Virus record (IMG/VR): IMGVR_UViG_2737471862_000003 | Span: 1-44,719 of that record | Strand: one strand, 5' to 3' | DNA length: 44,719 nucleotides | Source of the DNA: a virus | Lineage: Duplodnaviria > Heunggongvirae > Uroviricota > Caudoviricetes | Part shown: positions 28,257 to 31,711 of the stretch, one piece after another | Layout: each line of letters starts with the position of its first letter | How positions within the stretch are numbered: position 1 is the first letter of the stretch | The notes under the pieces: model-generated | Seen by the model: only the letters and a program-made list of their open reading frames with translations | What the model was told of the DNA's origin: nothing | Database searches by the model: none | Program-made: the position numbers and the translations under genes

Positions 28257-28412
28257 AGGATGATCCTTTTTCTATGTGAATCATCACCACTGCTGACGCC
28301 AATCAGTATGGTGGTGAACTGTGCAGGGTTGGCGTAACCGGGAAAAAGGAACCGGCGCGGATCGCTCCGCCCCCACACAGCCCACCATTGAGATGTGACA
28401 GTGCAAACGACA

Positions 28413-28434
28413 ATAAAAAAGACGCTGGCGCGTC
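28413..28434 (-). terminator. tR'-like intrinsic terminator downstream of the late promoter
   Basis: GACGC-TGGC-GCGTC hairpin plus a T-run on the minus strand, about 60-70 nt downstream of the candidate late promoter. Coordinates approximate. Confidence 0.55.
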
Positions 28435-28495
28435 TGTTGTCGCCTTTTTCATCCGGGACGCCAATCCCGACGCCAGATTTTGCTGGCGCGTGAGG

Positions 28496-28525
28496 AATAT
28501 AGCCCCGGACAATGTGTCTGGTCAA
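28496..28525 (-). promoter_or_regulatory. candidate late promoter pR' (TTGACC-N18-TATATT) overlapping the Q stop
   Basis: The sigma70-like -35/-10 pair is read directly from the minus strand immediately 3' of Q. The position matches lambdoid pR'/qut. Confidence 0.45.
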
Positions 28526-30682: not shown

Positions 30683-30877
30683 CTAGTCTTTCTTAATGCT
30701 GAAGTGACTGACCGAATCCGCATGCGATTCTTTGGTGATCAGAATAACATCGGATGGCAATGGCATTACGATAAACTCACCATTCTCAAGAACTATTACT
30801 TCATAATTACCTGGTATAGAAAGCGCAGCAATTAATTCCTTATCGTTCATAACCAAAATCCCGTGAACTTTAAACAC
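30683..30877 (-). CDS. hypothetical small protein
   Basis: ORF only. The start is uncertain and the ribosome-binding site is weak. Confidence 0.25.
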   Translation of the reverse strand: MFKVHGILVMNDKELIAALSIPGNYEVIVLENGEFIVMPLPSDVILITKESHADSVSHFSIKKD

Positions 30878-31011
30878 CTCCCCTTAAGGGGACCATCCTT
30901 CTTCTCCCTGCGCGCCAATCAAGTAATGAGATTCTATTTCCCCCGTAATTAGCCTCAAGAACAACAAATCACAAAAACACAAAAAGCCTGTTTGATTAAA
31001 AATAATCGTAA

Positions 31012-31032
31012 CAAAAAACCCGCCGAAGCGGG
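31012..31032 (-). terminator. intrinsic terminator at the 3' end of the hok mRNA
   Basis: CCCGC-TTCG-GCGGG hairpin followed by TTTTTTGT on the minus strand, about 70 nt downstream of the hok stop. Coordinates approximate. Confidence 0.55.
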
Positions 31033-31102
31033 TTAAGTGCGGGTGCGTTGAGGATGCCTGACACATCAGAGGTGGCGAGGGATTTCTCCCCCGCCAGGTC
31101 TC

Positions 31103-31258
31103 TTACTCCTCAGATTCGTAAGCTGTGAAGACAGCGACCTCCGTCTGGCCGGTTCGGATTCGTACCTCGCAGAGGTCTTTCCTCGTTACCAGTGCCGTCA
31201 CTATGACGGTTAAACAGATGACGATCAGGGCGATTAACATCGCCTTTTGCTGCTTCAT
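31103..31258 (-). CDS. hok: Hok/Gef-family type I toxin
   Basis: MKQQKAMLIALIVICLTVIVTALVTRKDLCEVRIRTGQTEVAVFTAYESEE is essentially the HokD/RelF sequence. AAGGAG ribosome-binding site. Confidence 0.9.
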   Translation of the reverse strand: MKQQKAMLIALIVICLTVIVTALVTRKDLCEVRIRTGQTEVAVFTAYESEE

Positions 31259-31315
31259 AGCCTGCTTCTCCTTGCCTTTCGGCACGTAAGAGGCTAACCT
31301 AGATTTGCCGTTCAT
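31103..31315 (-). CDS. mok: Mok (modulator of killing) overlapping reading frame
   Basis: An in-frame N-terminal extension of 19 codons begins at an upstream ATG, as in hok/mok/sok loci. Confidence 0.6.
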   Translation of the reverse strand: MNGKSRLASYVPKGKEKQAMKQQKAMLIALIVICLTVIVTALVTRKDLCEVRIRTGQTEVAVFTAYESEE

Positions 31316-31360
31316 AGATTGAGCCTCAGATTAATGTTAAGCGTCTTGCCGGACGCGTAA
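31285..31360 (+). ncRNA. sok: predicted Sok-like antisense RNA (position inferred, not located)
   Basis: In hok/sok systems the antitoxin RNA is encoded antisense to the mok translation-initiation region. Here the position is inferred from that architecture only; no promoter or terminator was located. Confidence 0.25.
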
Positions 31361-31595
31361 TGTTAACTGGGGCTTTTCTCTGTCTGCCTTACAGTGGCAT
31401 GCCCGAGGCAGACAGCCTCAAGCACCCGCAACAATCTTACCGACACCGATAAGAAAACGCTATTTTTATTGCCAGAACCTTCTGCCCAGGCTAATGTATC
31501 CGCGTCAGAACGGCGCAATGCGCTCGCCTGAGATACGTTTACTTGTCATTGGTGGCAACAGATAACGGCAATTGTTGTTTCTGTTTGTTTCCTTC

Positions 31596-31632
31596 AAAAA
31601 CCCCGGACCGTCAATCCGGGGTTTTTGTTTGT
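31596..31632. terminator. bidirectional intrinsic terminator
   Basis: AAAAA-CCCCGGA-N7-TCCGGGG-TTTTTGTTTG. Coordinates approximate. Confidence 0.5.
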
Positions 31633-31711
31633 TATCCCCAGCGGCAAATCGAATACACCACCAGCGCCACCGCCATCGCAATTCCTGTCGTTGTGAATGC
31701 TTCAGGCCTGG

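Follow-up and report, generated by a model that had tools for sequence, protein, structure and literature searches.

The window analysed here, a 44,719-nucleotide stretch of Caudoviricetes DNA (IMG/VR record IMGVR_UViG_2737471862_000003), very probably carries a complete hok/mok/sok type I toxin-antitoxin module of the hokD/hokW lineage, which is probably functional and belongs to a lambdoid prophage of Escherichia coli. The whole locus is located on the minus strand, with the Sok gene alone on the plus strand. As read from the letters, all structural features tested for in a hok/mok/sok type I locus are present: a Hok/Gef toxin, an overlapping mok frame with a Shine-Dalgarno sequence, an antisense Sok gene with promoter and terminator hairpin, a 5'-3' fold-back of the mRNA and a 3' terminator. 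The match goes beyond chance, because the Rfam family RF01794 is hit with 110 bits (E = 2e-24) and the fold of the mRNA has a z-score of -7.2, with 0 of 100 shuffles as low. This kind of module is already known, and the window holds an ordinary copy of a locus type that is common to most E. coli genomes. No second hok copy was found in the window.

Two sets of related loci were used for comparison. A pattern scan of viral contigs delivered 120 further loci, which together with the window and six fetched loci make 127 copies of the hairpin region; 104 of the 127 have flanks sufficient for full-length analysis, and 96 of these are unique. A protein-guided scan with one genome per species delivered 53 loci from Escherichia, Shigella, Kluyvera, Citrobacter, Pseudocitrobacter, Photorhabdus, Pantoea, Erwinia and other genera, and 37 homologues, ranging from Escherichia to Photorhabdus, were aligned with MAFFT for the study of covariation.

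The hok toxin gene comprises 51 codons (31103..31258, minus strand) and was recognized by the Pfam family HOK_GEF, by its identity to HokD and by the hokD annotation of an identical RefSeq region. Its product, MKQQKAMLIALIVICLTVIVTALVTRKDLCEVRIRTGQTEVAVFTAYESEE, corresponds to the last 51 codons of a 70-aa open reading frame in the ORF listing and matches HOK_GEF (PF01848) with 82.9 bits (E = 1.2e-23, cut-off 22). It is identical to K-12 HokD in 50 of 51 residues, with Ser49 versus Pro49 as the sole difference, in agreement with the sequence-only reading of a 51-aa product essentially identical to HokD/RelF. The motif AAGGAG at 31273-31268 precedes hok on the minus strand. Toxicity of this Hok may be expected from the published toxicity of HokD and HokW. 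The mok reading frame, known from the ORF listing and from homology to MokW, has 70 codons (31103..31315, minus strand) and runs in frame with hok; the Shine-Dalgarno sequence GAGG (31327-31324) lies 8 nt upstream of the mok AUG. The product, which includes the mok-like N-terminal extension noticed earlier, shares 63 of 70 residues with the annotated MokW of phage 933W, and no disruption of the mok/hok arrangement, which was to speak for decay, is seen in the reading frames. Among the prophage copies mok has 70 aa in 85 of 104 and hok has 51 aa in 98 of 99, and the exact K-12 HokD sequence is the commonest product of copies with a full leader (58 of 99).

The predicted full-length hok/mok mRNA has a length of about 416 nt (31012..31427, minus strand). 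We infer a start near 31427, where both the match to RF01794 and the homology to related loci begin, and the 3' end is given by the terminator. A putative -10 box TAAGAT (31434..31439, minus strand), read from the sequence, precedes the predicted 5' end by 6 nt. The homology with the 933W and Rac-type loci begins approximately at this box; no convincing -35 box was seen for the hok mRNA promoter. Most of the 104 prophage copies have TAGAAT as the -10 box, and the TAAGAT of the window is rare (4/104). The terminator scan located an intrinsic terminator, AACCCGC-UUCG-GCGGGUU followed by UUUUUGUU, at 31010..31034 (minus strand). Hairpin (31034..31017) and T-run thus confirm the 3' terminator noticed before; it is shared by K-12 hokD and the Rac-type locus and is missing from 933W. 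The interval originally assigned to the locus, 31012-31400, does hold a real locus, but omits nt 1-27 of the mRNA (31427-31401) with the tac box, as well as the -10 box at 31439-31434.

The antisense RNA, which the sequence-only reading had assumed without locating it, could be placed inside this interval by homology to sokW. The predicted Sok RNA of about 71 nt (~31307-31377, plus strand) was mapped from the sokW misc_RNA annotated in phages 933W and VT2-Sakai, which is 71 nt long with its 5' end 9 nt inside mokW. Predicted Sok and annotated SokW are identical in 65 of 71 positions, and all six differences occur within the first 10 nt. In the predicted fold (-31.1 kcal/mol) a 9-nt 5' tail, GCCGUUCAU, is single-stranded and is followed by a long hairpin and by the 3' end GGGGCUUUU, a U-tract. 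SokW RNA has been detected and shown to be antitoxic (PMC8621323); a literature search for 'sokD' delivered nothing microbial. The predicted Sok promoter (31272..31300, plus strand) consists of a -35 box TTGCCT (31272-31277), a 17-nt spacer and a -10 box TAACCT (31295-31300), and the predicted start, G31307, is 7 nt past the -10 box. A consensus promoter scan of 30850-31650 reported neither the Sok nor the hok promoter; the Sok promoter falls below the threshold of such a scan because its -10 box fits the consensus at only 3 of 6 positions. Both promoters, with hexamers too weak for the scan, were instead assigned from homology with the sokW annotation and from their conservation among the 104 copies. 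The -10 box is TAACCT in 90 of these and TAATCT in 14, the -35 box is TTGCCT with the 17-nt spacer in 86 and TTGACC in 15. An antisense promoter, whose absence had been named as a sign of decay, is therefore predicted and is conserved among the 104 prophage copies.

The RNA from 31427 to 31010 (418 nt) folds with a minimum free energy (MFE) of -176.5 kcal/mol, compared to a shuffle mean of -134.1 kcal/mol (z = -7.18; none of 100 shuffles was as low). The tac box, GGGUGCUUGAGG, forms the 5' end of the mRNA (nt 1-12; 31416..31427, minus strand), and its 3' partner, the fbi box CCUCAACGCACCC (nt 375-387; 31041..31053, minus strand), was recognized from the folds and from conservation. The ucb box, AAGCCCC (nt 53-59; 31369..31375, minus strand), is derived from folds, pair lists and conservation, and the predicted Sok-target hairpin (nt 101-138; 31290..31327, minus strand) holds both the mok Shine-Dalgarno sequence GAGG and the mok AUG. 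In the full-length fold nt 1-12 pair with nt 375-387 in the MFE as well as in the centroid structure, and nt 54-57 of ucb pair with the region of the mok Shine-Dalgarno sequence. When the RNA is cut in silico at nt 372 or 360, nt 1-8 of tac pair instead with nt 53-59 of ucb, and the target hairpin forms only in such 3'-truncated folds. The loop of this hairpin, AACGGC, is perfectly complementary to Sok nt 1-6. The 3'-trimmed RNA is thus predicted to adopt the textbook active fold, with tac paired to ucb and the target hairpin formed. The logic of tac, fbi, ucb and target hairpin is that of plasmid R1. A YUNR U-turn motif was not seen when the target loop of the window, AACGGCAAA, was inspected unsystematically by eye.

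Fold-back complementarity, which had been left to be checked, is present in the MFE fold as the tac-fbi helix, and this helix is 91% paired in the 37 homologues. The homology across genera starts at query positions 51-54, the predicted 5' end being position 54, and usually ends at about 440, which is the end of fbi; the conserved unit is therefore the transcript. For the full-length structure 85.8% of the pair cells are paired in the 37 homologues, compared to 39-46% when the partners are slid. Changes on both sides of a pair occur in 168 cells versus 73.6 in shuffles, and 0 of 500 shuffles reached the observed covariation score. Within the tac-fbi helix both-side changes occur in 3 of 12 pairs; columns 4/404, for example, are U-A in 28 sequences and C-G in 7, and compensatory changes in fbi are found in the copies of Photorhabdus, Kluyvera and Citrobacter. 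The value of 91% is a slight underestimate, as the UUGAGG half of the Photorhabdus fbi is shifted by one MAFFT column because those copies are without the bulged C. The tac-fbi lock of the full-length mRNA is thus supported by covariation. The tac-ucb pairs (98.8% paired) and the base of the target hairpin (GAGGC/GCCUC) are invariant in the 37 sequences; since they never vary, covariation speaks neither for nor against the active conformation. Higher up in the target hairpin, only 56-69% pairing is seen across the genera, in a region that aligns poorly.

The Rfam search proposed with the first reading of the locus yielded RF01794 ('sok') at 31427..31253 on the minus strand, with 110.4 bits (gathering score 59, E = 2e-24) over the full model 1-157. 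The match covers the leader and lies on the hok-sense strand. The same holds for 933W, where RF01794 matches 1509-1683 on the strand of mokW and hokW, and sokW is annotated on the opposite strand at 1559-1629. Because the model runs along the hok-sense strand, its match speaks for the hok leader, and the Sok gene lies antisense to the core of the model. Automated annotation should take note that the Rfam 'sok' model gives the wrong strand for the antitoxin. In the identical RefSeq region only the hokD CDS is annotated (PGAP), and Sok and mok are unannotated; a gene labelled 'hokD' by a pipeline is here a full module with an antisense RNA, unlike the truncated copy of K-12.

Among described systems, mokW/hokW/sokW of the Stx2 phages 933W and VT2-Sakai (Sp5) is a close relative, with 92.4% DNA identity to the window over 405 nt. 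The 933W locus shares 63 of 70 residues in Mok, 48 of 51 in Hok and 65 of 71 positions in Sok with the window, together with the layout of the Sok promoter and the Rfam match of the leader, and both loci are borne by lambdoid prophages. The surroundings differ: hokW of 933W has ead/Ea22-like genes on one side and a YgiW-like gene, next to a very large late protein, on the other, whereas the window copy lies between early genes and Q. After fbi the 933W sequence diverges from the window, and a homologous terminator hairpin is absent there. The two loci also differ in the 5'-terminal 10 nt of Sok, at six positions, and with them in the target loop: GCCGUUCAUA in the window, GUUCAGCAUG in 933W. 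Because both the neighbours and the 5' tail of Sok differ, the window copy is a close paralogue or allele of hokW-sokW at a different locus. A Rac-type locus (MN652886, 'Escherichia phage Rac') is 92.3% identical to the window over 426 nt and shares the terminator and the position upstream of rem and the Q antiterminator, but it has another target-loop allele, CUUUGCAUACG. A 1-nt insertion before the hok Shine-Dalgarno sequence puts its annotated mok in another frame than that of the window. With hok/mok/sok of plasmid R1, the prototype of the family, the window shares the list of parts, a toxin of the Hok/Gef family, the predicted switch between tac-fbi and tac-ucb with its predicted target hairpin, and a Sok with a single-stranded 5' tail. 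The two Hok proteins are about 46% identical, an approximate value. In contrast to R1, where mok and hok are read in different frames, the window has mok in frame with hok, as in mokW. The R1 module is plasmid-borne and the window copy resides in a prophage.

A query of 451 nt around the locus found a 100% identical region in E. coli OkiPb01716 (NZ_AP042701.1, 1367788-1368238), with neighbours as expected for a Qin/Rac-like lambdoid prophage. At some distance upstream of hok are dicB, DUF1482 and a repressor/Cro-like pair, followed nearer to hok by DUF977, DUF4014 and an HNH endonuclease; downstream are two small ORFs, DUF968, RusA and the antiterminator Q, then holins and terminase. All these neighbours are co-oriented with hok. 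The placement of the locus in a region equivalent to nin is borne out by this annotated identical region, with hok located between early genes of the HNH/DUF4014 type and DUF968-RusA-Q. Of 5426 complete E. coli genomes, 3890 have a near-full-length copy, defined as a match over at least 80% of the query. Roughly 10,765 places were counted in the 5426 genomes, with a median of 2 and a maximum of 9 per genome having the locus.

The Qin prophage of K-12 shares with the window the downstream order hokD, rem, a hypothetical gene, ydfU/DUF968 and a Q-like antiterminator, in addition to the toxin (50/51) and to DNA that is 98.8% identical over a stretch beginning 16 nt before the ATG and including fbi and the terminator. 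In blastn the match to the K-12-type copy is restricted to query positions 209-467, at 98.8% identity. Immediately upstream of K-12 hokD are relB-relE, and everything before the shared stretch is relE flank. Missing in K-12 are tac, ucb, the mok start, the Sok target and the Sok gene, all of which are present in the window. For RelB and RelE the best tblastn matches in the window are at chance level (E = 1.6 and 4.5, respectively), and relBE is absent within 9 kb on each side in the annotation of the identical RefSeq region; the earlier observation that the toxin is not accompanied by relBE, unlike in Qin, stands. The window hok is an orthologue of hokD, but its arrangement is not the relBE-hokD arrangement of Qin with relB-relE upstream and the leader missing. 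Given a product almost identical to K-12 HokD, whose locus is without a leader, one might suspect a decayed remnant of the same kind that has lost its RNA control. The sequence already contradicts this reading, which is scarcely credible here: similarity to the K-12 copy does not reach further upstream than 16 nt before the hok ATG, and the window has a complete leader. With full leader, mok, Sok promoter, fbi and terminator all intact, a remnant like K-12 hokD was ruled out. The relBE-hokD arrangement of K-12 itself seems to have arisen by truncation of a prophage module that is very common, because full-length copies are the common state (3890/5426 genomes); the direction of the change is suggested by this distribution. 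As the K-12 HokD sequence is the commonest one among copies with a full leader (58/99), the window represents the intact form and K-12 looks like a truncated derivative.

From these parts the following mechanism can be proposed. The weak promoter with the -10 box TAAGAT would produce a stable mRNA of about 416 nt. In the full-length RNA tac would be paired with fbi and ucb would cover the mok Shine-Dalgarno sequence, as indicated by the predicted fold and by the covariation of tac-fbi, and owing to this pairing and cover the RNA would be neither translated nor bound by Sok. Slow trimming of the 3' end would strip fbi, as in R1, whereupon, according to the folds, tac would move to ucb and the hairpin loop would expose the mok start region. 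A short, unstable Sok from the conserved antisense promoter inside mok would bind the loop with its 5' tail, and the full duplex of Sok and mRNA would block translation of mok and be degraded. When the supply of Sok stops, mok and then Hok would be translated, and Hok, a small inner-membrane peptide, would depolarise and kill the cell.

The most likely role of the module, by analogy with hokW-sokW of Sp5, is to aid cell lysis and phage release on prophage induction. For that locus it was shown that HokW is toxic and counteracted by SokW, with RNase III and Hfq contributing partly to the antitoxin effect, that mitomycin C leads to the loss of SokW and a RecA-dependent rise of HokW, and that deletion of hokW-sokW halves phage release (PMC8621323). 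A GC-rich palindromic hairpin flanked by A5/T5 (31595-31627) precedes the mRNA start by 168 nt and may insulate the locus in the lysogen. Read-through is conceivable because hok is co-oriented with the early-right genes and lies 168 nt downstream of this terminator hairpin; on a speculative view, antiterminated early transcription after induction might pass the hairpin into the locus and disturb the convergent Sok promoter. The transfer of the role to the window copy may be uncertain, as hokW sits elsewhere in its phage. Within the prophage of this strain the module may be regarded as a candidate for modulating the timing of lysis or the stability of the prophage.

Prophage stabilisation is possible as a second role. 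That prophage addiction should be the main job, with cells that lose the prophage losing the unstable Sok and being killed by Hok from the stable mRNA, appears rather unlikely, although it is the classic function of plasmid hok/sok, the records of 933W and VT2-Sakai annotate the locus as 'prophage maintenance', and hok genes are about four-fold enriched in prophages according to a survey (bioRxiv 10.1101/2025.08.07.668861). The same survey reports that expression of HokD is toxic. Addiction by a prophage copy is not known from experiments, and the only study of a close relative found a role in favour of lysis (PMC8621323). Many genomes moreover hold several near-identical copies (median 2, maximum 9), whose Soks share about 60 identical nt and might cross-protect. 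It is unlikely, to a slightly greater degree, that the module, though intact, is physiologically silent: a passenger of the prophage, selfish or neutral, which stays repressed and plays no measurable part either in the lysogen or on induction. Both promoters are weak by consensus, and such a state has been proposed for other chromosomal hok loci; hokA, hokB and hokC were unable to mediate post-segregational killing, according to Pedersen & Gerdes 1999 as cited in bioRxiv 10.1101/2025.08.07.668861. Against silence stand the intact regulatory elements in thousands of genomes and across genera, with compensatory changes, the constant lengths of mok (70 aa in 85/104) and hok (51 aa in 98/99) in prophage copies, and the measurable phenotype of the close relative hokW-sokW.

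Abortive infection or exclusion as the main function, in which an infecting phage would stop host transcription, deplete Sok and so release Hok, is improbable. Hok/sok of R1 on a high-copy plasmid reduced the plating of T4 by 42%, as cited in PMC8621323, and prophages often carry defence genes, but hok loci are not enriched beside defence systems (both bioRxiv 10.1101/2025.08.07.668861). The preferred reading remains a contribution to lysis and phage release on induction.

The most variable part of the transcript is located at 31305-31324, between the mok Shine-Dalgarno sequence and the Sok start, with an entropy of 0.54-0.88 bits compared to about 0-0.4 bits elsewhere in the transcript. In the 96 unique prophage copies pi is 0.365 in the loop core versus 0.069 at third-codon positions of hok; elsewhere in the transcript it ranges from 0.04 to 0.12, with 0.104 in another leader loop and 0.118 in the 3' UTR. 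The 127 copies comprise 22 loop/stem alleles, all of which fold into a hairpin of similar stability (-11.5 to -15.5 kcal/mol), and the allele of the window is the fifth commonest (14/127). The variable patch is both the recognition loop and the 5' tail of Sok. Tentatively, the patch at 31302-31324 might be under diversifying selection, so that the hok/sok modules of co-resident prophages avoid cross-neutralisation, much as changes in a loop give rise to new incompatibility groups among plasmids under antisense control. Relaxed constraint on the loop and the N-terminus of Mok, or mosaic recombination, would explain the variation equally well. Loop alleles from the same genome were different in 9 pairs and identical in 1, compared to about 11% identical expected from a rough estimate based on allele counts, a comparison that comprises 10 pairs only.

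The sequence UUACGAA (31115..31121, minus strand) around the Tyr47 codon of hok (UAC, 31120-31118) matches the motif for A-to-I editing by TadA, and UACGAA is invariant in 37 of 37 aligned homologues. In K-12, TadA-dependent editing was reported to turn this very Tyr codon into Cys in hokC, hokD and hokE (PMC5630033), and by analogy the Tyr47 codon of the window hok is a candidate editing site.

In the hok/mok/sok locus, a short patch at positions 31302-31324 (minus strand) of the window covers mok codons 1-5, the loop of the target hairpin and the 5' tail of the predicted antisense RNA Sok. Comparison of the prophage copies shows this patch to be hypervariable, whereas the rest of the locus is well conserved, with about 87-96% identity in matches to phage records. 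Nucleotide diversity (pi) among the prophage copies reaches 0.365 in the loop core, versus 0.069 at the third codon positions of hok. The patch occurs as 22 alleles in the 127 prophage copies, and all of them retain a similar hairpin stability. The specificity of Sok may be set by this patch, or the patch may simply be free of constraint.

A hairpin allele shorter by 2 nt places mok out of frame in 11 of 104 prophage copies (e.g. the prophage loci L060, L140 and L147), leaving an open reading frame of 19 codons. As this length equals the distance between the mok and hok AUG codons, the shortened frame is estimated to end approximately at the hok start. The mok of the window is in frame and comprises 70 codons, so that copies with the 19-codon frame would have a different coupling geometry.

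Matches to RF01794, which Rfam calls 'sok antitoxin', lie on the hok-sense strand, i.e. the mRNA leader, at positions 31253-31427 of the window and 1509-1683 of the phage 933W locus (L003). The sokW of phage 933W is annotated within the latter match on the opposite strand. Automated annotation from RF01794 would put the antitoxin on the wrong strand.

Within hok, the Tyr47 codon lies in a UUACGAA motif (positions 31115-31121, minus strand), of which the UACGAA part is invariant in 37 homologues from several genera. It corresponds to the TadA editing motif, which in hokC, hokD and hokE of strain K-12 is reported to recode the same tyrosine to Cys (PMC5630033).

A GC-rich palindromic hairpin with A5 and T5 flanks (CAAAAACCCCGG...CCGGGGTTTTTG, -23 kcal/mol) is located at positions 31595-31627, 168 nt upstream of the predicted hok mRNA start, and looks like a bidirectional terminator between hok and the upstream early genes. 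The hok terminator is closely followed by a promoter-like site (TTGAGG, 16 nt, TAGAAT; positions 30931-30958, minus strand), which is probably a promoter or leader for the next small gene. Its TAGAAT and the subsequent 'GCGCGCAGGGA.AAGA.GGATGGTCCC' are kept in K-12, upstream of rem.

DNA of the hokD type was also found in tiny contigs of Acinetobacter idrijaensis (L020, 275 nt) and Xanthomonas pisi (L026, 431 nt) with 91-93% nucleotide identity, and in 'Actinobacillus phage vB_Apl-pPE4' (hit H31) with 95% identity. These matches probably reflect E. coli contamination or mis-assigned hosts.

Further Rfam matches on the minus strand are isrK (28415-28489), C4 antisense RNA (28307-28392) and the a1/b1 targets of C4 antisense RNA (28450-28502). 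Mapped onto the identical RefSeq region (NZ_AP042701.1), they fall within the 3' part of the CDS for 'antitermination protein Q'. Positions 28307-28502 look like a P1 c4/Gifsy-1 isrK-type element, and the Q CDS may be over-called there. A full-length Rfam match to IS009 RNA (223.7 bits) occupies positions 41-239, likewise on the minus strand.
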